Part shown: positions 46,975-64,000 of the stretch, one piece after another
Position numbering within the stretch: the first letter of the stretch is position 1
Layout: every line of letters starts with the position of its first letter
The notes under the pieces: model-generated
What the model was told of the DNA's origin: nothing
Databases searched by the model: none
Seen by the model: only the letters and a program-made list of their open reading frames with translations
Position numbers and translations under genes: made by a program
Origin: Phyllosticta citribraziliensis
Lineage: Eukaryota
Length of the DNA: 64,000 nucleotides
Direction: 5' to 3'
NCBI RefSeq assembly: GCF_038025025.1
Contig: NW_027117339.1
Coordinates: forward strand, 310,001-374,000

Positions 46975-48707
46975 ATTTCATCTACCTCTCGACGAACCTA
47001 ACGAATTCAACACGTACAAGTCAGTCCCATAACAAATAATGCGTTGCACACAGCGTCGGCGTTTTCTGGAGTTTCTGTCTTTTTCAACAAAAAGATGCTA
47101 GCTAGGCGTGGTAATCTGGGCGGAGCTAGCGAGCGAGGCGAGCGAAGCCAGCCGGCCGACGTGCAACAGCGACTACATTGGTAGCTGATTCAACACAAAA
47201 TCTCTTCTTACATACCCATTTCAACACCATGGCATACAAAATCGGGACGGAGGGTGGGGGGCAACTGGTTCAACAAAACAGGACATGGCTTCATTTTACA
47301 GAGACAGAGATTTGCGGTTTTGACTTCAACATCGGCGAATGATGAGTGGGAGATGGACGGCATGATGGGACGTCTACTTCAACATGCATGACGGTATGAT
47401 TTGGCTCTCTTCAGTTCGTCTTGTGCTTTGACGGCAGTAGGCAGATACGCGGGTACGGCCGCGCCGTGCTGAGAATTGAGAATGCGAGAATTCCATTGCA
47501 CGATGTTTCTCTGCCTCAGTGAGAGACACTGCGGCCGCAAAAAGTGACAGCACCTGACCCAACCAGGGCGGAGTGCGAAGTCTGTCAGAACTCTTCTTGG
47601 CGTCTAACCCTCCTTCCTCTACGGCGTCGGCATTTGAACCGCAGACTTGGAAACGCTGGAAGCTTATACTTTGTCAGTGAACCCTTGATCTGCGACAGCC
47701 GCTCTTTTGACCCTTCGTTCAGAATAGTCCGATTGGTGTCTTGCCGCACGTGACTTTTGACGGCTGTTGGAGCTGCGCTGCCTTCCCTGTTGCGGTGGCT
47801 CTGAAGTTGGTTTGTTGTCAGCAGCATTATATATCGACCTCGATGCTTCCTCTTTACATACACACACACCGCCGCCTTTCATGACGTACCATGGTGTTCT
47901 CCAAGTGGCAGCCTAGTTACCATCTACATCAAGGTCTTCTCCATCAATTCGATCAGCGGGGACTAGCAAAGACTCCAACGTCGGTCGGCTCTTACCTGCC
48001 GACTGGCATCCATACCAACGACGTAGACGACGCGTCGTTTTCGGACTGTGCGACCTATTCAAAGATTCCGGACGATGTGGACGGTTCGGAGATTTCTTGC
48101 TGGCGAGACGGCAGCCATCGCTCTTCCCTTCGATACTCTTCACTGGTGACTGGCCTGTCTCATTGAGAATTCGCTCTCGATGAACCAGACGAAAAGAAAG
48201 ACAGATATAATGAAGAGAGACGAGAATCCCTTTCTTTTTTTCCTTGGTCACTCATCAAACACACGACCACAACCCCAGCACTGGCCGTCCATGAACGAGC
48301 ACCATGTCGTCTCGTCTCGCCCCACCACAGCAAACCCTACAACAGTTGTGTCCGTCAGCGCGTGCTATCAGCGACAAGAAGAGCGCTGAAAGGCTAAACG
48401 CAAACGCTAACCCACCTCGACTGTTCCGTGCGCACGACACGGAAGCGCGTCCGCTTGACGCGAGGAGAAAGCTTGATTCACTGACTTTACTTTGCATTAC
48501 CCCACGATCAAGCTTGATTGAAAAAAATTCTGTCTTTACTCTGCTGGTTTACTCTCTGCTCTGTCTCTCTTCTCCACTGCCATCGCAGCACAGCAGCAAA
48601 ACGCGCGACACCTAAACACAGCAGCTCCTCCCTCACAAGCACCCGAGTTCCAAGAGACACCCCTCCACCACGAACTCAAACACTCGCCCACCAAAGAGAA
48701 AGCAGCC

Positions 48708-49174
48708 ATGGCCTCGTCCGCCCCCGCCGACCCACCCGTCACCGTCATGCTGACGTACCCCAACGTCGACGACGCCGTCTTCAACTACGACTACTACCTG
48801 CAGACGCACATGCCGCTGGCCGAGCAGGTGTGGCGGCCGCTCGGGCTGGTGGGGTATAGGGCTGTGAAGTGTGTCCCCTTTTCCCTTTCTCCCCCCCAAA
48901 TCCCAAAACCCCCATCATCCTGTTACCTACCTCTTACCTACCTCCTAACGATGTTGTTCGTAGAGTCTCTCTCGGCCCCACAGCCCACGAAGCGGGCAAA
49001 GCACCTTACAACGTCGTCTGCCTGCTCGAGTTTTCGTCGCGGAAAGATTGGGATAGGGCGTGGGAGGCGGCGCTGACGCAGCTGGTGCACGACGTGCCGA
49101 ATTTCTCGAACCAGATGCCGACGTTTTTGATCGGGGAGCGGTTTGCGGGGACGGTCGAGGTGGGGAGGGTGTAG
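48708..49174 (+). CDS. EthD-domain protein, copy 1
   Basis: YP..FNYDYYLQTHMPLAEQVW..DVPNFSNQMP; phase-2 intron 48869-48963. Confidence 0.85.
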
Positions 49175-49313: not shown

Positions 49314-49948
49314 GAGCCAAGTTCCAAGGAGGCAGGCAGCTGCTTAGCCGTCACTCTCATCAGCGAGCCCATCCATGCGTCGTCCGTCCGCTCCTCGTCC
49401 GTCCGTCCGTCCGCTCGACCCGTCCCGCCCGCATTGCTTGATAAACGGCTAAACACAAAAAACCAACAGCCAAGTCACCCCAAACTCACCCCAAACTCAC
49501 CCCAAACTCACTGACTGACAAAGCACGCACGGCCCCTCGTCTCGCTCTATCTTTCTCGACCCATCTGAGTCCATACGGGCGGGTCGGAAGCGCCCCCGGC
49601 CCTCCATTGCGCGCGTTGTGCTGCGCGGTTGCGTCGAGTTTAGATTGCTTGGTTTGCTTGGGTGGGTGGCGCGGGGGAGGGGAGGGGAGGGGAGGTTTTG
49701 CACTGCCTGGAGCAAGTAGTTGGTGCGCGTCGCACTCGCATTCGTATCGTAGATAGATGAAAGATTGAGTGCGGAGGGGGGAGGAGGGAGGGAAGGAGGG
49801 AGAGTTGCGGTGCCAGAACGGCGACTTACTTAGCTGCTGTATCGCCCACCTCCAGCCCACATCTTCTTCTGTCCTACACCTATCCACCAACCTACCCATT
49901 CAATCAATCAATCAGTCAGTCAATTGACCAACCAACCAACCATCCACC

Positions 49949-50377
49949 ATGTCCTCCTCCACGCCCATCACCCTGACCGTCTTCTACCCCGCCGACCCCG
50001 ACGCCACCTTCGACCACGACTACTACGTCAACACGCACATGCCCATGGCCGAGAAGCTGTGGCGGCCCATGGGCATGCTGGGGTATCGGACCTTCAAGTG
50101 CGTCTTCCTCCATCTCCTCCTCCCCCCCCCCCCCCCCCCTGTCCTACCCTCGCCCTTACTCACGACCCACAGAATCCAATCCCCCACGCCCTCCGGCGAC
50201 GCCGCGCCCTACAGTGTCGTGACCATCGTCGAGTTCAGCTCCGCCGCGGCGTGGGAGGAGGCGTTCAAGCTCGCGCCCGAGCACTTGATGCCGGACATTC
50301 CGAATTACTCGAATAAGCCGCCGCTGTTTTTTGTGGGGGAGAGGTTTGGCGGGAGTGTTGGGGTTGTGAGGGAGTGA
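49949..50377 (+). CDS. EthD-domain protein, copy 2
   Basis: YP..FDHDYYVNTHMPMAEKLW..DIPNYSNKPP; phase-2 intron 50098-50172 at the same codon as copy 1. Confidence 0.85.
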   Translation: MSSSTPITLTVFYPADPDATFDHDYYVNTHMPMAEKLWRPMGMLGYRTFKCVFLHLLLPPPPPPVLPSPLLTTHRIQSPTPSGDAAPYSVVTIVEFSSAAAWEEAFKLAPEHLMPDIPNYSNKPPLFFVGERFGGSVGVVRE

Positions 50378-52666
50378 ACGAGGGGGCGAGGGAGTTTGTG
50401 AGGAGGGGAGTAGGAGGGAGGGGGGAGAGAAATGGAGGTTTTGGTGGAGGACTGGGATGAGACGGGATGATGCACTCGCTGGGCTTTGCTTTGGCTGGTG
50501 GGGAGGTAAAGGGTGTGGAGTGAGGGAGTGGATGGGTCGATGGGCAAAGAAGAGAAGAGATGAGAGAGATGAGAGAGATGAGAAAGATTGACAGGTGAGC
50601 GCGGGAATGAGACGGACGAACAGATGGGAAACAGGAAATCAGACTGTACAATGCACTTGCGTTGGCCATCTCCATTCTCTACCACGTCAACATCGCGATT
50701 CGCGTCGTCCCACCCTGGCGATGCAGTCCATTCAGTGAGCCGTCCACTCTGCCCTACCGTCGGCGGCAATGAACCTCAGGACCAAGCAAGAAGCTCCGCC
50801 TCACTGGCGTCTCCTCTCATGGCTCGTTCCGGGCCAGGCGCGGCGCTGGTGTGAGTTGTGTGTAGCACGCAACCAAGTTGCGGCGATGCTACGTCGTCAA
50901 CGAGCCTACCTGGGCGACAGACGGAACAAACACACAAACGCAGTCGACGCCGTCCGAAATTTCCGCTTGACTAGTGCCGCGCCGGCGCACCTGCCACGAC
51001 GAACCGGTGTCGCGCCCGGCGACGCGCTGCTTGGTTTGGCGCGAGTCGGAGGCTTTGCAGGCACAGAGGAAAGGATAAGAGCGTGGGATAGATGCATACA
51101 AGCAAACAGGAGAAATGCGCTCAGCTGGCCGGCGCGGATGTGTTTGATCCGATCGACGGCCTTGGTTGCAAAAAGTCGGCGTACTGGATGGTGTGGTGTT
51201 GAGGCCGGTTTGTTGCGGGCGGCGAATTATTGTACGGACCAGGGTATCGGCGGATTTGGTGGTTTGCCACGGTATAGTCGACTGACTAGAGGATATAGAG
51301 CATCAGCTCGCTCAGAGGGGAAATTCAGGGTTGCCATGTGCGCCGCAGCAGCGCAACTCTGCACGCCATCTTTTTCCGCCTGAAGTCGTCGTCTGGCTGT
51401 GCGCAGCGACGTGGGCGATGCGGTCGACCTCGGCAACCATCATGAGGCGCTGCAGGCTGGGGCTGAGCTGTGTGCGACGCGACGAAAAGCTTCGCCGCCA
51501 TGTTTCTAGCTCGAGCAGCCAGTCTTGCAAGACTGTCGTTCGGGATGCATAAGAAAAGACTATTTTGGTTGCTGCTGCTGCTGCTCGAGCCAGAAACGAG
51601 AGACGGCTTGGCTTGTGCAAGGGAGAAATTGCGGTGGTGTGGTGCAGTGGCACGCCAGGCAGACACAGCGTCGCGCTATCGGGGCGACAGACGGGGTCGA
51701 CGATAACGACAATGGCAACGAGGGGTTGGAAAGGGTAAAGACGCAGGGCCTGTGTCAGAGAGGCGAGATGTTTTTGGCGCAGACGGGGAAAAAGGCGAAA
51801 ACGAGACGAGACTAGAAATCAAGGCCTTGTGGTCTTGCGGCTAGGTTCATGTACGAGGTGAGATGGCGGATGGCGGTGGTGGTGATGGATGGAAGCGGTT
51901 GCGGCGGGTCGTCAGCTTTCCTTCTAGAATGTTTGTTGGCGGGGAGCGAGCAGGGAGAGGCATGGTGCAGTACGAGAGGGAGTAGGGCAGAGACGACGCC
52001 AACATGTCATGTCAGCGCAGCGTTGATGCTATTTGAGAGTGTGCGATGTTGCAGTCGGTGGGAGATGGAGCTGAGCCGGCGTGTGCGAGATGAGCCGTGG
52101 TGTTGAGTTGGTTGACAGGGTCATGTCAGGCGCAAATCAAGCTTAATTTTGCTTGTTTTGCTTGCTTGGGTCTGGTGTCGTGTCGGGCCGGCCCTATATC
52201 TCTTTCGTGACGGCAGCTACACTACAGTACTGCGTGTTTGTCGTCGTCGTTCTCTGGTCAGCAAGACGGAGAGAATGAATGCACAGCAGGGCGCACTATC
52301 GACTGCAGGCCATGTCGGCCGGGAACCGAGACCAGTGCAACAATGAAGACGAGGACGAGGACGAGAAAAAAAAAAAAAAGAGGTCGGCCTCTTTGCCACG
52401 TCGCATCGCATGCCATGGGCTCTTGTTCCTGCATGGCCCGTCATTCGCTCGGGGCTGGCTATGAATAGACGCAGGGGCACAATTCCTCGTATATCTGCTC
52501 CTTCTCACCTTCTCACCCACCTCCAGCCTCTTCTTTCCCTTTGTCGACACACGTCATACCTTAGCAGTCAACCCCATATATTTGTCCTCCTCTCCTCCTC
52601 CCATTCAACTCGACATTGGATCAATCCCTCACCTCGACCACCTACAACCCCAACCAATCAATCATA

Positions 52667-53152
52667 ATGCTCTTCACAACAACCCTCCTCTCGCTCCTGG
52701 CGACCCTCACCACCGCCCTCCCAACCGCCAACACCAACGCCAACAAAAACCTCAACCCCCGCGCCGGCGGCCCCAGTTTCGTCCCCATAGAAGCCCCGTG
52801 CTACCTCAGCTACGCCCTCGCCGCCGACGCCTCGTCGGCCGCGCGCCCCATCGTCGACATCGCCTCGACGCAAATCTACCACTGGGACCGCGCCCTGGCC
52901 GACGCCCAGTACAACAACGAAACCACGCTGTGGACCCAGTGCGTCGAGCAGTGCAACGGCCTGTCGGGCTGCAAGGCCGCCTTCCTCGCCTACAACGTCC
53001 CCAGCGAGCCCATCTACTCGAGCCCCGGCGGCAGCCCCAGCATCGCCTGCCGCATGTTCAACACGGTCCTCTCTGCCGACAGCTTTGCCCCCGTCACCAA
53101 CGGCAGCTACACCCAGGCCATGGCCGCAAACATTGCTGGCTGCGCCAAGTAA
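52667..53152 (+). CDS. Small secreted cysteine-rich protein (161 aa), effector candidate
   Basis: Signal peptide MLFTTTLLSLLATLTTALP, propeptide ending LNPR, six Cys including CVEQC..GC..ACRMF (PAN/Apple-like spacing). Confidence 0.85.
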   Translation: MLFTTTLLSLLATLTTALPTANTNANKNLNPRAGGPSFVPIEAPCYLSYALAADASSAARPIVDIASTQIYHWDRALADAQYNNETTLWTQCVEQCNGLSGCKAAFLAYNVPSEPIYSSPGGSPSIACRMFNTVLSADSFAPVTNGSYTQAMAANIAGCAK

Positions 53153-54179
53153 TCGCCAAACTTGCTCCCACGACCTGTGACGACTTTTATTTCTTCCCTC
53201 CGACCCGTTGCGGCTCGGCTTGTACAGCACCAACGCACCGCCCCGGCACTCTTTATTTCTTCACTCTTCTCGCTTTAATTGGCTCGTTTCCTTTGCCGCA
53301 TGCATTACCTCTTCTCCTATATCCCCTTTGCCGCCACGCCGCGACTACACGGCCGTGGTGGTATAATGTCTTTGTTTATTTCACCCACGTCAATGGGCTC
53401 GGCGGACGGATGGAGCGACGGCGCATGGGCGCATGGGTAGATGAGAGGAGCGGGGCAAAGTCAGACGCCCGAGTTGGAATGGAATGGAATGGATTGCACG
53501 CATGCACAGCACCCTTCCACACACACACGGATTGTACAGCACAGTATATTATAGCACCGAGCTTGCTACCTTCCTTTAGCGAGCGAGCAGGGAAAAAAGA
53601 CAGAACAAACCGAATCAATCAAAAGTCTACTTGAACTACTAAACAAGTCATCCATTGTTGCCATGTTTGTGCTCTTGCCTGTCCCTCTTCAGCCGCTTCA
53701 GACGCGCACTATACGGCGCACGGCATACGTCAGTCAGTCACCCAGCAACATACCTAGAGCTTGGTCACTCTTCCCTGCCCGTTGAGTCGTCTGGAAGCGT
53801 TGCGCGGTGCCGAGTAAGTATAGTGTATTCCCCGCTGCCAGGTCGGCGGGACGCAAGAGCCTTGTCCTCCACGCTGTCGCTCGTCATCGAGGACCCATCA
53901 TGCTGACTGATGCGCACCTTTGTCTGGTCACGCTTGCCGTCTTTGCTGTACTATTTGAAATGGGGAGAGGAGAGGAGGCTGAGTGAGACGGACCGGCTGA
54001 ACCGACCACCCCAGTGTGGTGGTGTTGGTATTGTTGTTCCGCACGCCAGCAAGCCTCCCAGTTCTCGACCATTCGAAGCTTCTTGGTTGTGGGGATGAAG
54101 TTGGCGTGTTGGAGCCGTATGAGGAGTTGGAGCGGTTGACGGGGGGTTTTTGTATGCGAGGGGTTGGCGGAAGGGTATC

Positions 54180-57100
54180 AGATGCTAGGCATCAAATGCC
54201 AGACAAGCAGACACGTCGACGCCGCGTCACGAGCTGCCATTTCGCATTTGCTTCTGACAGACTGCACAGGCCTCAAGCGCCTCGCCGCCTCCCTTCCCTC
54301 CCCAGTCTCTATATTAAAGCACCCCGTCCTCGCTCCCAGCCGCTCATTTAAGCATTGCATTCGACTCAGCTGTCTGGCGCCAGAGTGTATGAAGCATGTC
54401 ACTGTTTTCTCCTTGTTCTTTCTTCCCAGCGCCCCTGCGGAACAGGCCATGCACTGGATTATTGCTTTCAGATGCCGGAGCTCTTCATGGAACGATGTCG
54501 TTGCTCAACATCCCCATATACGTTGTCGCGTGCAGCGTCAAAGCGCCGTCGTCTCTGCCTTGCGGCCCTCGCCACGAAATTAGACTGTCGACGCAAAGGA
54601 AAACGGAGAGAAAAACGAATAAGCGCCGAGGCACAGGCAGTGGAGAGTTTTAAGCTGTGTTGGCAAGGCAGACCGCAAAGTCAAATTCTTGTAGCGCGGT
54701 TCGTTCGTGGATCTTGTCGGCTTGTCGAGAGCTCTCAGTTGAGGATGAGGATGGGGAGGGAGAGGAAAGACCGGGTTTTATACCTAACCTGCGCAGAATT
54801 GACTGTCACATACGTCACGAGAACTACGAGCACAGGCAAAGCTGGATCGCCGCATGACGCGTCCGGCTGCGGCGTCAGTGGCGTCAGGGGCACGCCCTCC
54901 CTTCCTTCTCGCTGTATAAATTCCGCTGCTTTTGCCCTCTCGGGTTCTGCGCACAACAGTAAGTGAGCGACGGACCGTGAGAGACAAGTCCACGCTTGAA
55001 TATCTACTGTCGTAACCACATGAAACATGGCACTTGTTTTTGCTGGAGTTTCCGCCGCATCTTTTCCACAGAAAAGGGGCAGTGGAGGTTAAAATAGTCG
55101 AGAATCCTTTTCGATGCGGAGGATGATGGTGGGTGTCTACACTTCCAGGGCATGGGTTCAATTGGTGTCTTGTCGTTGTGCTGCTGACGTGTGAAAATCA
55201 GGATGTTGTAGGAAGTGGAGACAGACGGGAAGAAAAACAAAGCAGACAAAGACAGTACACACGGATGTAGATTCCGTTCAAGACCCGCCCAAGTGAACTT
55301 GAACCAAGATTGACTGCCTTGATGTCGGCGCCCTATCTTGTCTGGAGAGTCCAGTCAAGGGGGCGAGTCTGCGGAGTTTTTGTACTCAGCAGCGATCCAG
55401 AATCTGGAGAAGAGCAGCACATGCACTTTCCACGCGACAGTCACATGCAGTATCTGCCTGGAGTCAGGGTATGGTTTCCAGAAGGGTATATAACTCTGCT
55501 CCTCCCCCTCTTCACTCACTCTTCAAGCAGGAGACGGGTGAAGAGTGGGCACTCGACAATATCACGGACTCCCTGGCGCGCTGCTCTCTCCAGTGGTATG
55601 AGTGGGAGCATTCACTTTGGTGGGGTTTCTGGTTGGCGGACCTCGTAAGGGACTGGTGGAAATTCAGGGGTAGTATTTCAGGGGTATGCCGCTATTCTTC
55701 AATGTGACATGACGACATTTTCCGCCACCATGCCCCAGCATCTCTGACTATCTGTTAAAGGAAGAAGTAATCGAATCGTAGAACGCGAGGATGGGAGCTG
55801 GCATAGCGGTATGTCTCTTCCTTATTGAGAGGACGCATTACCAAGTGCTCGCATTCTGATTCTCCCAGGGCATATGGTCGCTGTTGCATCCGGCAAAAAA
55901 GCAAGCTAGGGGAATTTTCATACACGCTGAAAGCGACAGCCAGCCATGTGAAAATCTAGGAGTGATGTGTCAGGGGTGTGATGAAATTCTCTGTTTTGAT
56001 GTAATGATAGTGTCCTTCATCGTCGAGTAATCTTCTGAACGTTAGATGAAAAGAATGGTAAGTGGAAAGTGAAGATGCGAGGACAGGAGCCGGCGAGGGA
56101 GTAGGCTCATACTATGGTAGTAGTTAGCGCGCAGTATTGACTCACAGTGTGTCGGTTTCCCTAAGAGTAGAGAGTAGAGGAGCGCTGATGCATCGAGCAA
56201 TGCGCTAACCAGGCGAGCTTTTATACACGCCGAAAGTGAGTGCCGGCCACATGGCAAGGCACACAGCCCCTTCACATGTCTCACACCCATCTCCGCATGT
56301 GCCACAACCGCGTGGCCCCGCTCGTATATAAAATGTCCTACTTTCTTCCCCGTCGCTATCACTTCAACAGGCGAAACCAAAAGTGAGGACCCAGCGAAAA
56401 TGCCAATTATCAATCAAGAAGAAACTGGGGTGTCTGGCGCTGGTGTTGCGAGTGAAAGGGGGTTGAGAAGGCACCCGCGTTTCAGGGGCGACATTCTTTT
56501 CAGGGGCACATTAGCATCCTCCAACATTCCACAATGCTGCTCGTCATCATTACTCAACTTCTATAGTGGTCTGTATAGACAGCAAAGCGTGTAGAAAGCA
56601 GAGACGCGAGAGCAAAGCAGTAGAATTCGTCGGGTGGCATCGGAGGCGCGCAGTCGACTTTCCCCATGGCGCCGTTTCCCCGAGAGTATGGGGCTGCTGT
56701 TGGAAGACTAGGAAATGGGTGAAGTAGGGGAGTATTTCTTACACCTTGAGAGTGAGAACCGGCCACAAAGCACGCAAGACCTTCACATGTCTTGAGTCCC
56801 GCATGTGCTGCGACCGCGCGGCGGCGCTCGTGTATAAATTGCGCCACTTTCCGCTCGCTGTCACTTCCGCAGCTCGACACAGGCAGAGGAGTTGGAAGTT
56901 CGTTGCCCAAGCAACCGACACTGAGAACATACCGCAAAATGCTCTGCACTGTGTGGTTGGAGTCGGCGTGGAGGAAACAGGTCGTGGAAGCAATTGTTCA
57001 AAACGAGGAGAATTTCAGGGGCGACCTTCTATTCAGGGGTATGATGGCCTCCTTTAACACCATCAGACGCTGTTCATCAGCACCACATCATATCTCTAGG

Positions 57101-58150
57101 GATTCTGTTGTCAGAAGAAAATATGTGAAGACATGGGAGCGGGGCCCGGCCCGGCCCCGGAAAGTGAAGTTAATGTGTATGTCCGACAGCAGTGTTGCGT
57201 AAGCGATTGATTTTCGCGTTGACTCACCGTTAAGAACCCTGGAGGAAAACCAAGCATCTTGACATCAAGAGAGGAGATTTATATGCCTCCAGGCCGCTCA
57301 AATGCCACGCAGCTTTCTCGCTGATCAAATGCCCGCGTCTCACCACAAGCGTCTCGTGGAAGGGGGCGTGCGCTCTGCGATTTAGTACAAATACTGCGCC
57401 CTCCCCTTTTTCTTTGCCATCCACAACAGCCTAGTTCTGGCAAAATGATAACCACTGCATTGAATGAAACTTGTGGATGGGCACAACTCCTACCACGAAA
57501 GAATTGCTTCCTTTTGTCAGACAGAAGGACGATTCTTTAGTGTGAGATATTGATGTACGAAACTGCTCATCCTCGAATCGACTTCGTGCAGTCAATCACT
57601 ATCGCGCCATCACGGCGATTCTGGGAAATTACGCAAATCAAGACAGACCAAGCACAGCAGGAACAAAAAAACAGTCACTCGTTTTGTAGATCTGTTTAAA
57701 CCAGAGAGAGTTCCCCTTGTGCATGCCCATGATAGCAGGTAGGTAGACAATGTGTGGGAGTAGACCCCACGCCACTCAGAAGCATTTAAATACTCCAAGC
57801 CAGCGCCTCATGTGCAACACCACTCCACATGCCTAAGCCTCCACATACCAAGCTTCCATTAGCGCAAAGGACGGCTCCGGCTTTCTTTCGTATAAATACC
57901 GCCGCCTCGACCGACTTTTCTTATCACAGTCACAACTCCGGCGTGGTCCACGAAGCCCGCATGGGCCCAAGGCACCGCAAGTCAACTGCCTGTTGTGAGA
58001 AGTAGTGAACGGATAAACGCACTTTGGCGTTGGCGTTGGCTGGAGCGCAGCGCAGGCAGACGTGCTTAAAAGCAGGACGTCACGAGCGAGCGAACAGCCG
58101 GCGACATCTTAGGAGGATGGTGATACTCTTCAATATGACAAACCGGCGCC
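54180..58150 (+). repeat. Array of about 8 diverged tandem units (~500-600 bp), each with E-box-like motifs, seven with a TATA-like box
   Basis: TATA-like boxes at 54310, 54915, 55487, 56325, 56833, 57386, 57891; units at 56224 and 56740 align along most of their length; shared CACATG/CAAATG upstream and TTCAGGGG-type motifs downstream. Confidence 0.7.
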
Positions 58151-58788
58151 CATTATCGCCATCCTAGGCAGGCAGGCAGGCGTCTTGAGTACCTCCAAAA
58201 ACGAACCTTGACAACATGCAAGGCCGAAAACCATGTGTTTGAGCTGGACGTGGCGAGTGTCGGTTGCGGCGTTGCATGAAGGTGACAGTAAGGAGAAGGA
58301 ATCTTTAAGAGACGGTGATGTTTCGTTGCTTAAGTTACGAACGACACTCATCACAGTTCTCTCTGTACGAGGCAGAGCAGGGCAACAGGCAGGCAGCAAT
58401 TAGTGTATATCCAGACCTAGCCTGCAGAATGAAAGGAAAAAAGAAGCAGAGCAAGTTTTGAGCCCACCCGGTGGGCGCTGAAGCCTCCGAAAAACGCCGC
58501 ACCACCACCATCACCTGCGGATCCCGTCCATCCATCCGTCCGTCCATCCACCCGTTTGCCCGTGGTATAGAGCCAAGCAAGCAAGCAATCTGTGTATTGG
58601 CGCAAGCTGATCCCAGGAGCCCGAACAAAAACGAAAAAGGGCAAAGAAAAGGGAGAAGGAGAAGAAACAACGAAGAGAGACCGCCGGCCAGCCAGCCAGA
58701 AAGCAAGCACCACCAGCCACTACCGCACCTGGCGAGTGGACCTCCCATCCATCCCATAGCATCACCTCCGCACTGATCTGCGCCTCAT

Positions 58789-61700
58789 CTACTCGCTAAA
58801 CTCGTCCGCAAAGCCGTCGCTGGCATCGTGAAACGTGTCGCCCTCGTCTTCATCGTCGTCCTCGATCGTGTACCTGCTCTTGGCGGCCGCCGCAGCAGCG
58901 CGACCAGGCCTGGCCTTTGCGTATGCCTTGGCCGCAGGACTGAGCTCGGACGCTTTCTTCTCAACGACAGGGACGGCCGTGGGCTTGGCCTTGGCCTTGG
59001 GGGCAGGCTTTGCCTTTTCCTTGGGCGCCGCCGCAGCCTTGTTCTTGCTGCCAGCAGGGCGGCCACGCGGTTTGGCAGCTGCAGAGGCGGCTGGCTTGGG
59101 GGCTGCCTTGGATTTGGGCTTGACGAGGACCGCGTCGTCGCTGTCATTCTCGTCGGCCGAATCGTCAGACACGCCATTGGCCGACGTCTTGCGCGGGGCT
59201 ATGGTGCGCTGGGGCGAGGCTTGCGGAGCGAGCATTGTGTAGTCCGTGTCGTCAATCTTGTCGTCGTCCGTCTCCGGGCTGGGCTTGGACTTGGTCGTTT
59301 TGGGGAGAGCGGTGCTAGTCGTGCGGCCCTTGGAAGCGGAGAAGAGAGTGCGGCCGGCAGAATCAATGGAGGGACCATCGAGACCGCGAATCATGGTGCT
59401 GACATCGCCGAGGTCGTTGTCGACCATGTCCTCATCGCTGTCATCAGAGAGGACGTAACGCGTGGGCTTTGCGGCAGCAGCACGCCTGCGCGATGGTGCC
59501 TCCGTCTTCTTCTCCGTCTCTGCAACGGCAGCGAAAACGTCTTCGTCGCTCTCGTCGTTGACCTTGCGAGAAGGCTTTGCAGCGGCAGCCTTTGGCTTGG
59601 GGGCTGGCTCATCCTCCATTTCACTGTCATCGCTGATGACGGACTTCTTCGGAGGAGCCTTCCTGCCGTTGGTCTTGGGCTGAGGCTCTGGCTCGGCCTC
59701 AAAGTCGTCGGCCTCATCATCGCTAATTGCGAGTTTCTTGGGGCCAGCCTTTCTGCCATTCGCCTTTGGCTTAGGAGCAGGTTCAGGCTCAGGCTCGGCC
59801 TCAGGCTCAAAGTCGTCGGCCTCGTCCTCATCATCGCTGATCACGATCTTCTTGGGGGCAGCCTTTCTGCCGTTCGTCTTTGGCTTGGGCGCGGGTTCAG
59901 GCTCAGCTTCAGCTTCGACCTCGGGCTCAAAGTCATCGGCCTCGCTGTCATCGCTGATGGTAATCTTCTTGGGCGCGGCCTTCCTAGCATTGGCTCTCGG
60001 CTTGGGCGCAGGCACTGGCTCCGGCTCAAAGTCGTCGCCGTCACTTTCGTCGCTGAGAACAGTCTTCTTGGGAGCAGCCTTCCTGCCGTTGGCCTTGGGC
60101 TTGGGCGCGGGCGCGGGCGCCGGCTCCGGTTCAAAAGCATCGCCCTCACTCTCATCGCTAATGTCGATTGGCTTGGGTGCCGGTTTTACGGCGGCGGCTC
60201 TGGGCTTGGAGGCAGGCTTCTTAGCGACAGGCTCGTCGAATGCACCGTCAATCTCCATTGGAGTCGTCGAAGCCTCCTTCTTTTCGCGGGTCGCCAAAAA
60301 GTCCATGAGCATGTTTGACTTGCCCTTGGGAGATGATTCGGCAGCCTGAACTATTTGTTAAATCTCGACGGACAGATTGAAATTCAAAGGGAAGCTTACC
60401 TTTGGCTTCGCCGTGGCTTTGTTGACGACGCTGTCTGGATACTTGTTCATAAAGCCCGACAAGAAACTCTGCTTGGGTGCAGCCTTCTTCTTGGGCTTAA
60501 TCTCAAAGTCGTCGTCGCTCATGGCGTCACTATCACCAGCCTTGCGCTTCTTCGATGCCTTGCTACCAATCTTGAGCTTTGCCGACGCACGGCGACCCTT
60601 CCGGCGAGACTCTTTGGCCTCACTCTCCGCCAGCTTTTCCTGAGTCTCCCACTCTTCGACGAACTCATCCAAATCGGTGGTCCAGAGATCTTTGGGCGAT
60701 TTCTTGATGAGCACGTCGATTTCCGTCTCCTTGTCGCCAATCTGCCTGAGCAGCTTCTCGACACGCTCCTGCGTGAGGGACCAAATTGCCATGCCCAAGA
60801 GGTAGTCGTAGTCGTTGCTACCCGCCGCCTTGTCCTCCTCCGAGTCTTCTTCGTCGACAACATCTTCCTCTTCGCCCAGCCTCTTTGCGTCATTCTTCGG
60901 AATGGGCGAGAAGCCGAGTTTCTTGAGCTCAGCCACAAGGGCCATCTTCTTCTTCTTCGACACCACAAGCTTGTTGTCGATGATCATCTGGATGAACCTC
61001 GCCTGGTTGGTGAGCTTGTTCAGATCCTTGGACATCTCATCAAGCATGTACTGCTTGCGCTTCTCGTAGAACTTGAGGCGAATGTGATAAAACTCTTCGA
61101 GAATGTCAAGTTCAGTGGCGTACTTTTGGATGCGGCCCTGGGCATCGAAAGCAACAAGGTTGGACGTGGCCAAAGACTTGTAGAGCTTGAAGCGCTCCTC
61201 GAGGCCCATCTCAAGGGCCTGCTGCATGTTCTTGGCATCGGCCATCTTGATGATGAAGCTAACCTTTTGCAGGGTGTGGTATTCGTTGTAATCCTTGACG
61301 AACGAAGGGACCTTCTCAGCCTTGATGATGCCTTCGAGCTTGTCCTTGAAATCTTGAGTCCACACACGAATCGGCAGTTCCGTGATTTCAACCTCAAGCT
61401 CGCCAGTCTGTTTGATGATGCCCGTGAATTTGTAGCGGTCTCCGCCAACATCCTCAATGGTGCCCTTCCAACCCCTGAACCACGGCATCATGCGCTCCAT
61501 GTCTTCCTTGGAGCCACCGGCCATGCGGGCCTTGAGGTTCTTGACGATTTCCATGGGGTTGTAGTTGGGAATCGACGAACTCCAGCCAGTTCCAATACCG
61601 TCCGCGCCGTTGACAAGAATCATCGGCAGAACTGGGACGTAATTTGTCGGTTCAATCGTCTTGCCGTCGTCTTGGTCGTACGTGAGCAGCGGCTCGTCGG

Positions 61701-64000
61701 TTGTTTGGAAGATGCGCCGAGCAAAAGGCGACAACCTGGTGTAAATATAACGAGCGCTGGCAGCATCGCTGCCACCTTGGAAGCGGGAACCAAAGTTGCC
61801 GCTGGGTTCCAAGACATTGATGTTGTTCGAGCCGACGAAGTTCTGAGCGAGGCCAACAATGGTCTGCTGAAGAGATGCATCACCGTAGGCGTAGTTCGTC
61901 ATACCTCCGACGTGTCCAGCAAGTTCAATGACCTTGATGTCCTTCCTCACGTTTCTCTTGAAACAAGTGTACAGGACCTTGCGTTGACCAGGTTTCAAGC
62001 CGTCGACGACCGATGGAATAGAACGGTAGTTGTCGACCATGCTGAAGAGAATCAGCTCCTTGTTGACAAAATCGTCGTAACTGATTTTTGGAGCCCGCAT
62101 GTCGAGAAATGTGCCAGGAACAAAAGTGCGCAGCCACTCCTTGCGGGCGTCGGCCTTCTTCTTGGAAAAGGCAAGCTCAAAGAGCTCGGTCTCAGCATCC
62201 TTCATCGTGTGGAACTCCTTCAAGTGCCGGTCAAGATCCTGAAAGTACTCGACGGCGTCCTCAGGCCTAGAAGTACCCAATCCCTTGTAGTACTTGTGTT
62301 CCCATCCTCGTTGATGAGTTGGGTCCTGCTTCCACTCTTCGTACTCGGGCATTGTGAAGAAAGACTTGAGGCCTTTGGGCTTCTTCGGGTCGCCTTTCCA
62401 GACCTTGACAATTGGCGTAATAAACTCCAACAGGAAGCCCTCAATCTTGAGAAGACTGGGAAACTGAACTTGCAAGAAGTTGATCAGCAAGCCTTTGATG
62501 TGACTGCCATCGTGATCCTGATCAGTCATGATCATGATGTGACCGTACCGGAGGCCTTTGGTGTCGGTGTATTCCTTCTTGTGCTGCAATCCAATGAATT
62601 TCTTGATGTTTTGAATTTCTTCGTTCCTGGAGATCTGATCGATCGAGGCATCGCGGACGTTGAGCATCTTTCCACGGAGCGGGAATACACCAAAGAGATC
62701 CGGATCAACCTCTGCTCGACCAGCCAGAGCAAGCAAACTGGCCGAGTCACCTTCTGTGAGGATCAAGGTACATCTGTAGCCGTCTTTGGTTCCAGCTTTG
62801 TTGGCGTCTGTAAGCTTGGAGTGGTTCATGCGCGTTCGCTTGGCACCGTCGGATCTCTTGAGGACCTGGTCTGCTTTTTGCTGCGCAAAGTGAAGGATGT
62901 TGTTGACAACTTCCGTCTTGGCAATGTCTTTGAGGAACTTGTCCGAGACCGTACACTTGCTTCCGAACTGACTTGACTTGGTCGTCATTTGCTCCTTGGT
63001 CTGTGATGTGAAAGCCGGGTTGACAACCTGACAGTTGACGAAGAGGAACAGGTGGTTCTTGAGATGTTGTGGCTTGAGCTGAAATCCATTCTTGTTCTTC
63101 TTCTTGATGATATCGGTGAGCTTGTTGACCACCTGATCCGCAATGTAGTTGACGTGGGTACCACCAGAGGTGGTTGCAATCGAGTTAACGAACGAGACTT
63201 GCGAAAAGGCACCGTCCGAAACAGCGAATCCAATTTCCCAACGGTCATTCGGGTTGTCGGTGAGAATGACATCCGATTCGGTTGTCGAACCCTGTTCATG
63301 TTTGATGGCCTTGGTGTACATCTTCATGTACTCCTTGAAGTTCTTGACCTTGATGCGGTCGCCGTTGAGGAAGACCTTCAGGCCTTTGGTTGTGCCGGCA
63401 ATGTCGTAGACGCGGCGTTTCGCCAGAGCCTCAAAGTCGTCGTCCATCCCATCCATGCCAAACTTCTTGAAGTCTGGCTTGAACGTTACCTTGGTGAAGG
63501 ACTCGCCCTTGTGAGCTGTGATTTTGGCCTTGCCGCACTTTCCCATGTTGTCTGTCCAGGTCTGCTTGTACTTTTGGTGCACGCGCGAGTCGGCAGTCTC
63601 GAGGGTAAACTCTGTACTGAAAATGTTACAGAGCTTTGCACCGTAACCATTGCGGCCACCCGTCACTTTTTGCTGGTCGTCATCGTAGTTGGAGGAGGTC
63701 AAGAGATGGCCGAAGATCAGCTCTGGGATGTAGATACCCTCGGTCTGGGAACATGTCAGTGCTACACTCCCGCAGTAGGTGGGATAAGTGCACGTACTCC
63801 GTGGATCTCAATGGGAATACCCTTGCCGTCGTTCCTGACGCTGATTTCTCCAGACTCCCGGTCAATGGTGACTTTTATTTCCTTCATGTTCTGGTCATTG
63901 TGCTTGTTATCGGCAGCGTTGACCAGGATTTCGTCAAAAATCTTGTACAGACCGGGGACAAAGCTGACTTCGCGGTTCTCCATGGACTCGGTCTCGGAGT
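58789..64000 (-). CDS. TOP2: DNA topoisomerase II (5' end outside window)
   Basis: FDEILVNAADNK, GGRNGYGAKLCNIFS, LILTEGDSA, PLRGKMLNV, MTDQDHDGSHIKG, GLKPGQRKV, ASARYI active-site Tyr; introns 63745-63797 and 60346-60399. Confidence 0.98.
59590..60180 (-). repeat. Coding tandem repeat (~30-37 aa, about 6 copies) in TOP2 C-terminal domain
   Basis: KPKANGRKAAPKK(I/T)(V/T)(I/L)SD(D/E)..DDFEPEPEPAP repeated. Confidence 0.9.

Follow-up and report, generated by a model that had tools for sequence, protein, structure and literature searches.

Tandem arrays of separately promoted small RNA genes, such as those for small nuclear RNA (snRNA), spliced-leader RNA and 5S ribosomal RNA (rRNA), occur in various eukaryotes. 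We know of no description of RNA polymerase II (Pol II) small-RNA arrays of this type in filamentous fungi. The locus reported here is an array of repeat units at positions 54180-58300 of a 64,000-nt stretch of the Phyllosticta citribraziliensis genome (NCBI RefSeq assembly GCF_038025025.1, contig NW_027117339.1, positions 310,001 to 374,000 of the forward strand), and this whole stretch is called the window below. Like the snRNA, spliced-leader and 5S rRNA arrays, it consists of head-to-tail units of a few hundred bp with their own same-oriented, here predicted, promoters and no conserved or long open reading frame (ORF). Unlike them, it has no Rfam match and no conserved fold, its copies are 50-60% alike and not homogenised, and its transcripts are predicted ones. 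An earlier note on the same DNA had described it as a hidden array of about eight promoter-bearing units that might encode non-coding RNAs or micropeptides.

The tandem orphan or small-ORF genes of plant-associated fungi, with pseudogenised copies, resemble the array in local duplication, fast divergence, short ORFs behind a TATA box and the lack of homologues beyond the lineage; they differ from it in that the array has no codon bias, has a frame broken in its best-conserved block and has a promoter conserved better than any ORF. Solo long terminal repeats (LTRs) and other transposon relics share with it a unit of ~0.5 kb with a TATA inside, but the array has no transposon domains, terminal repeats, signature of repeat-induced point mutation (RIP) or other copy in the window. 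The dicer-independent small interfering RNA (disiRNA) loci of Neurospora are sites of divergent or convergent non-coding transcription. TATA-like elements on the two strands of the array, ~100-133 bp apart, could likewise drive opposing inter-module transcripts, although they are paired by short motifs only and dyad symmetry of the modules is not significant.

Homology of the units

The region 54180-58300 is a diverged tandem repeat family whose units lie head to tail, on the same strand and in register (Table 1). Seven TATA-like sites had been placed on the plus strand in the earlier note, and all of their coordinates were right. The distances from TATA to TATA range from 505 to 838 bp (605, 572, 838, 508, 553 and 505 bp in order). 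The site at 57386 is non-canonical, and the other six are canonical or near-canonical. The count of about eight promoter-bearing units largely held, with seven full units that have a TATA or TATA-like site; the remaining unit, A', is truncated and has no TATA, and the link of U1 and U2 to the other units is marginal.

Table 1. Features of the array and its flanking genes. Signed positions are relative to the plus-strand TATA of the unit.
Feature	Coordinates	Strand	Plus-strand TATA-like site	First-ATG ORF after TATA	Description
Whole array	54180..58300	+			Eight units in head-to-tail order, seven full and one truncated; plus-strand TATA boxes all point to the TOP2 3' end
Unit U1	54180..54770	+	54310, TATATTAAAG (TATATTAAA)	ATG 54389, 64 aa	
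Unit U2	54771..55370	+	54915, TATAAATTCC (TATAAA)	ATG 55020, 25 aa	Minus-strand TATAAA 54782; TCAGGGG 54884; CAACAG +39
Unit A	55371..55860	+	55487, TATATAACTC (TATATAA)	16 aa	CACATG -69 and -45; TCAGGGG 55664 and 55678, the pair spaced 4 nt tighter than in B and C
Unit A'	55861..56125	+			Truncated copy; upstream edge of the module fused directly to the TCAGGGG region (55970); TATA and start region gone
Unit B	56126..56645	+	56325, TATATAAAAT (TATATAAAA)	56400-56594, 64 aa	Minus-strand TATAAA 56225; three CACATG/CATGTG boxes; CAACAG +40; TCAGGGG 56482 and 56500
Unit C	56646..57200	+	56833, TATAAATTGC (TATAAA)	56939-57202, 87 aa	Degenerate left element 56735; two CACATG/CATGTG boxes; TCAGGGG 57015 and 57033
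Unit D	57201..57770	+	57386, TACAAATACT (non-canonical, TACAAATA)	ATG 57445, 31 aa	Minus-strand TATAAA 57283; CAACAG +38; no TCAGGGG block
Unit E	57771..58300	+	57891, TATAAATACC (TATAAATA)	14 aa	Left element TTTAAATAC -106; CATGTG/CACATG -82 and -65; degenerate downstream block 58100-58157
Left flanking gene	52667..53152	+			161 aa, small secreted-type protein; points at the array
Right flanking gene, TOP2	58789..63807	-			Two adjoining open frames, 58789-60357 and 60358-63807; 3' end faces the array

The sequence was compared with itself using BLASTN, and just three inter-unit pairs were found at an E value of 0.002 or less. Two of these join B and C, as had been proposed from their close alignment: 56224-56365 with 56740-56867 (69% over 142 nt, E value 1.4e-10) and a downstream block, 56480-56506 with 57013-57039 (93% over 27 nt, E value 1e-5). 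The third joins A' and B (55879-55946 with 56183-56249, E value 0.002). The pairs 54908/56827 (E value 0.82) and 55680/58111 (E value 2.9) were non-significant. A profile of B and C searched with nhmmer matched A' at 55855-55950 (E value 6.3e-8) and, in the first round, A at 55499-55767 (E value 2.7e-4), where the match starts right past the TATA at 55487 and is in register. After iteration, the profile matched unit E at 58100-58157, in register with the downstream block, at an E value of 0.06 for the whole window; a match at 54913-54938, on the U2 TATA, had an E value of 2.3. Unit D was missed by the profile, and nothing in the rest of the window fell below an E value of 0.9. No copies of the array were found elsewhere in the 64 kb.

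The eight units were then aligned all against all by the Smith-Waterman method, with z calculated from 100 dinucleotide shuffles per pair. The highest values were 24.5 for B-C, 8.67 for A-A', 6.55 for U1-U2 (a score reached by 0/100 shuffles), 5.77 for D-E, 5.68 for A-C, 5.39 for A'-B and 4.93 for A-B, followed by 4.0 for A'-C, 3.44 for A-E and 3.42 for C-E; U2-C (2.38) and U1-D (2.05) were lower. Similarity beyond B and C, set against shuffled sequence, was the check that the earlier note had proposed, and it was found: z was at least 3.4 in 10 of the 28 same-strand pairs (mean 3.18), compared with 3 of 240 controls in which a unit was aligned with an unrelated 550-bp piece of the window (mean 0.13, sd 1.17, maximum 4.53, none at 5 or above). 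Opposite-strand pairs of units had a mean z of -0.01 (n = 28) and a top value of 1.91. Two further pairs of pieces singled out in the earlier note are borne out by these alignments and not by BLASTN: 54389/55020 is non-significant by BLASTN but lies within U1-U2, and 55663/58100 has a BLASTN E value of 2.9 but lies within A-E and includes the in-register nhmmer match in unit E.

The proposal of an old head-to-tail family agrees with these results, in which all significant similarity is on the same strand. TATA falls on TATA in five of the seven alignments shown (U1-U2, D-E, C-E, U2-C and A-E); the U1-D alignment does not place TATA on TATA, and the A-A' alignment contains no TATA. U1-U2 is aligned over 54194-54744 and 54822-55360, and D-E over 57272-57765 and 57778-58249, with TACAAATA on TATAAATA. 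Three subfamilies are seen, (U1, U2), (A, A', B, C) and (D, E), the second and the third being linked at a z near the 99th percentile of the control pairs. Over 499 ungapped columns, identity between B and C is 58.9%; their differences comprise 101 transitions and 104 transversions, and near-equal numbers of the two at this identity indicate an old duplication. The flanks (52950-54179 and 58301-58790) had no similarity to the units (z 2.53 or less), so that an extension of the array to either side was rejected. Tandem Repeats Finder reported microsatellite-size repeats only, the 0.5-kb period being below its similarity range. A metagenome scan with a piece of TOP2 matched 48 pattern stretches, of which 0 were confirmed, and a scan with the double TCAGGGG pattern gave 0 matches.

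Conserved module and motifs

Identity between B and C is uneven, ranging from 20% to 80% across 30-column windows, with peaks over the TATA module and the TCAGGGG block; the variance along the alignment was matched by just 1/2000 permutations. The best-kept part of each unit is a TATA-centred, promoter-like module, in keeping with the earlier description of the units as promoter-bearing. The hexamer TATAAA occurs 4 times on the plus strand and 6 times on the minus strand of the 64-kb window, and the array holds 4/4 of the former and 3/6 of the latter. On the plus strand, 4 copies compare with 0.14 expected from the rest of the window (p 1.5e-5). With flanking sequence at 55-59% identity, the survival of an exact hexamer in several copies would be unlikely under neutral drift.

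In filamentous fungi, the usual core-promoter layout is a TATA box followed by a pyrimidine tract ahead of the start site. The copies have in common a layout of this Pol II TATA type, with TATA, pyrimidine tract and putative start region. The pyrimidine fraction at +8 to +40 is 0.70-0.82 in 7/7 units, and a CAACAG-type hexamer is present at +33 to +40 in 6/7. Upstream, a T-rich, TATA-like element lies at -98 to -108 in 5/7 units; B and D have it in the form of a minus-strand TATAAA, which U2 has at -138. CACATG/CATGTG boxes lie no more than 140 nt upstream of TATA in 4/7 units.

The heptamer TCAGGGG is paired at about +155 to +200 from TATA in A, B and C and single in A'. The array contains 8 copies on the plus strand (0.32 expected) and 0 on the minus strand (p 1.9e-9 among 3478 7-mers), the copies being related by descent and not independent. 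One of them is 31 bp upstream of the U2 TATA, where its placement is like that of a promoter element. Literature on the TCAGGGG motif in fungi and on Phyllosticta genomics was searched, and no publication bearing on this locus turned up.

The minus-strand TATAAA at 54782, 56225 and 57283 were absent from the earlier note. Each has a plus-strand TATA or TACAAATA 102-133 bp to its right, with which it forms a divergent pair; units A, C and E have related T-rich elements at -98 to -108. The minus-strand TATA-like elements may be a second set of promoters facing the opposite way. The sequence TTGACTCAC occurs at 56138-56146 and 57220-57228, in corresponding places left of the B and D modules, and has diverged in unit C. 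It contains TGACTCA, which is the core of AP-1/Gcn4-type sites.

Coding potential and RNA families

That the units have no conserved or long ORF, as the earlier note had it, was confirmed. The longest ATG ORF in the array has 164 aa (54472-54966) and crosses a unit boundary. A codon-usage score was trained on 6824 codons from the long ORFs of the window, and its median in the best frame was -0.064 for the array, close to two other non-coding stretches (-0.059 and -0.065), with 0.241 for TOP2 and 0.281 for the left flanking gene. The array does not have the codon bias of the genome's genes, and a reading frame is not kept between the copies: B and C have FRGD(I/L)LFRG in one common frame, unit E has no ORF matching that frame, and unit A has a 4-nt deletion between its TCAGGGG copies, inside the most conserved downstream block. 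This deletion indicates that the block is conserved as nucleotides.

Rfam was searched with 52000-60000 on both strands (E value of 1 or less), and the single match was at chance level and outside the array. ARAGORN found 0 tRNA genes. No Pfam or transposon-domain match was obtained within the array either, consistent with the earlier statement that it belongs to no recognised snRNA, small nucleolar RNA (snoRNA), tRNA or transposon family. A C/D-box snoRNA on the minus strand of B and C (TGATGA ... CTGA inside CCCCTGAA, found by eye) was rejected, as unit A has no box C, no terminal stem was seen and Rfam was silent. Telomerase-RNA template, CaaX pheromone precursor and Pol III terminator motifs, also sought by eye, were dropped because no motif was consistent across the units.

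Contigs from two sequencing runs

Two sequencing runs, X1 and X2, were available as contigs only, without strand or true ends; their classing as RNA was a guess, DNA may be present, and two of the contig records in the array have ~20 unaligned letters at either end. The runs were taken as RNA because contig depth differs by orders of magnitude among the left gene, TOP2 and the gap, and because a contig departs from the genome at 60347 in both runs, adjoining the break between the TOP2 frames. Within the array, X1 contigs cover 54412-54724, 55723-56120 and 56392-56691, and X2 contigs cover 54296-54464 and 55773-56015, all of them inter-module segments. This cover weakly supports transcription. 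The left ends of the X1 contigs are 102, 236 and 67 nt from the plus-strand TATA, which is a loose fit. X1 depth was 0 in bins 55337-55603 and 56939-58006, and X2 depth was 0 in most array bins; these values were not used as evidence. A contig in X1 and X2 matches just the 45 bases 58018-58062 and is unlike the window on either side, which suggests that the organism's sequence has another copy of these bases at a different place.

Interpretation

Tentatively, and with somewhat less than even confidence, the array is read as a lineage-specific family of short Pol II units, each with its own promoter and a non-coding product. The observations behind this reading are that the units are homologous and share one orientation, that conservation along them is uneven, that TATA is retained and that coding and folding signals are lacking. 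An ancestral unit of ~0.5 kb would have been duplicated head to tail. It would have had a Pol II core promoter, made up of a T-rich or TATA-like element, CACATG-type boxes, TATA, a pyrimidine tract and a CAACAG-type start region, and past this promoter ~250-450 nt without coding constraint. The copies would have drifted to ~50-60% identity, keeping the promoter module and, in A, A', B and C, the strand-specific TCAGGGG block. From each full unit, Pol II would start a separate short transcript at a low level in the direction of TOP2, and the product would probably be non-coding. Selection may act on promoter activity and on TCAGGGG, where a protein would bind the DNA or the RNA; neither a peptide nor a fold would then be under selection. 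The persistence of the promoter module and, in one subfamily, of the TCAGGGG pair amid drift of the remaining sequence suggests that initiation and a short motif are under selection, and in this way points to short non-coding transcripts. It is a prediction of this reading that transcripts initiate at the TATA boxes, and the strand, length and function given to them are predictions as well.

In a more specific form, the array would comprise at least seven separately promoted Pol II non-coding RNA (ncRNA) genes in a Dothideomycete, with selection on the promoter and on a strand-specific TCAGGGG box, which is in tandem in three units, and would yield decoy-type protein-binding RNAs or opposing inter-module transcripts. 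We consider this form unlikely; if true, such an ncRNA gene cluster would be of a kind not described in fungi.

Several observations weigh against a family of promoted non-coding units. U1 and U2 are tied to the other units only marginally, through U2-C and U1-D; unit D has no canonical TATA, and U1 has no upstream elements. Patchy gene conversion could mimic the uneven conservation. A structured ncRNA is not supported, since no conserved fold was found (RNAalifold on the downstream block of A, B, C and E gave -2.31 kcal/mol on the plus strand and -1.07 kcal/mol on the minus strand), and 250-nt predicted transcripts from 14 unit strands were not unusually stable (folding-energy z -1.94 to +1.79). 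Among the contigs, the X2 piece 54296-54464 starts upstream of the U1 TATA and the X1 piece 55723-56120 starts 236 nt past the A TATA, positions that do not suit a simple start 30-60 nt beyond a plus-strand TATA. Each of the three X1 pieces stops, on its right side, 50-105 nt short of a minus-strand TATA-like element, and transcription from the minus strand or in both directions suits the pieces at least as well.

The array might alternatively be a neutral relic, in which a small orphan gene or a functionless stretch was tandemly duplicated and the copies are decaying, the conserved patches being due to partial gene conversion and the TATA being left over. An identity of just 55-59%, with B-C transitions and transversions at 101:104, suits long decay, as do the truncation of A', the loss of the TATA in unit D, the wide variation in first-ATG ORF length (14-87 aa) and the protein searches, which gave no homologue. 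U1 and U2 also have a common in-frame start, MKH.T.F, as would be expected of decaying paralogues of a small gene. Such decay does not readily account for a variance of B-C identity above that of 1999/2000 permutations, for the confinement of the window's plus-strand TATAAA to the array, or for TATA, pyrimidine tract and start region recurring in subfamilies that otherwise barely align, for which gene conversion must have hit identical patches repeatedly. On balance, a neutral relic is a possible explanation but one on the unlikely side. Micropeptide genes, the other option of the earlier note, would require that at least B and C be young paralogues (64 and 87 aa, core FRGD(I/L)LFRG) and the other units diverged or dead. 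The first ATG of B and of C, in the context GC(G/A)AAAATG, does read the conserved block in the same phase (~1% by chance, a rough and post hoc figure); five codons of the common block differ only synonymously by hand count, and the 150-nt window 56921-57070 over the C ORF has a codon score of 0.036, within the lower coding range (10th percentile -0.039). Against this, unit A has the 4-nt deletion between its TCAGGGG copies and no in-frame ATG, 9 residues are changed compared with 5 synonymous differences over 23 aligned codons from the start of the block (hand count), which is near the neutral ratio, and codon usage in the array resembles that of non-coding DNA. The B and C ORFs had no homologue, with 0 matches at an E value of 10 or less for their alignment in a word-indexed protein search and 0 of 1,835,955,588 representatives at an E value of 0.001 or less with HMMER, and none was found for the 64-aa ORF of U1, so that the protein searches, which covered the B, C and U1 ORFs, lend micropeptides no support. 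We regard micropeptide genes as clearly unlikely.

Units acting as DNA, with TATA, CACATG and TCAGGGG holding TBP and specific factors, could form, between two convergent and well-expressed genes, a binding-site or boundary array with a role, for example, in termination or insulation or in regulation at a distance. The three enriched short motifs of the array, TCAGGGG, TATAAA and CACATG, agree with this, as do TATA-like elements on both strands ~100-133 bp apart, the location between convergent 3' ends and the TCAGGGG just upstream of the U2 TATA; AGGGG is the stress-response element of fungi. Such an array needs neither the strict strandedness of TCAGGGG (8 plus, 0 minus) nor a single orientation of the units, a candidate factor was not identified, and downstream regulatory arrays of this sort are to our knowledge not an established feature of filamentous fungi. 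We regard this explanation as very unlikely. Highly improbable is a transposon relic, that is, a row of solo LTRs or of other mobile-element pieces that carry a promoter, for which there is the LTR-like unit of ~0.5 kb with an internal TATA and a sub-threshold Pfam match of 55860-56027 to the Tc5 transposase C-terminal domain (E value 0.017, 15.9 bits against a cut-off of 27.4). None of 86 ORFs (at least 45 aa) reached any Pfam cut-off, no further copy was found within the 64-kb window, dyad symmetry and terminal inverted repeats are absent from the modules (z -0.69 to 2.03), and each unit directly adjoins the next, head to tail, without an internal element in between. The same symmetry values led to the rejection of foldback modules or modules like miniature inverted-repeat transposable elements. 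RIP as the source of the TATA richness was likewise rejected: it is recognised by TpA/ApT above ~0.89 and (CpA+TpG)/(ApC+GpT) below ~1.03, and these were 0.67 and 1.29 in the array and 0.55 and 1.25 in the window.

Transcription of the units and their conservation in sister species would make the locus a compact natural tandem family of promoter-bearing non-coding units in a filamentous fungus, of a sort that standard annotation would miss, and a system for following the survival of core promoters during transcript drift and the birth and death of orphan genes and long non-coding RNAs. As a neutral relic, it would be an ordinary footprint of tandem duplication and of annotation value only, accounting for a 4-kb gap with neither gene nor transposon.

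Flanking genes and other features

The array lies on the plus strand and is flanked by two genes that converge on it, one for an Apple-domain-like secreted protein and the other TOP2; it takes up the central 4 kb of the 5.6-kb intergenic gap between them (53200-58788). Both genes end facing the array, and therefore its predicted promoters cannot serve them and the gap needs no promoter for either. The left gene has coding-type codon usage; its UniRef relatives carry the name 'Apple domain-containing', and the best matches were from Phyllosticta citriasiana (85% identity) and P. capitalensis (72% identity), with no Pfam family at an E value of 0.01 or less. It has by far the highest contig depth of the mapped stretch in X1 and X2 alike. 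An X1 contig of 733 letters with a depth of ~1700 covers 53503-54211 and reaches the edge of unit U1, whereas X2 depth past ~53735 is ~3 or 0. Either the left gene is extended at its 3' end under some conditions, or the contig belongs to a separate transcript that abuts the array.

Pfam domains of type II topoisomerase were found on the TOP2 frame 60358-63807 (DNA_topoisoIV at 7e-121, TOPRIM_C, DNA_gyraseB and Toprim), and the C-terminal tail stops at 58789. This tail (58789-60357, minus strand) contains several copies of a basic-then-acidic motif of ~40 aa, PKPK.NGRKA.PKK..ISDD...DDFEPE. An X1 contig differs from the window at five positions within 58954-58990 in the tail, which could be an allele or a mis-joined repeat. 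Further to the left, the adjacent plus-strand open frames 48522-49076 and 49928-50377, neither of which matches a Pfam family at an E value of 0.01 or less, have a stretch in common (..YP...D..F..DYY...HMP.AE..WRP.G..GYR..KC) and look like tandem paralogues.

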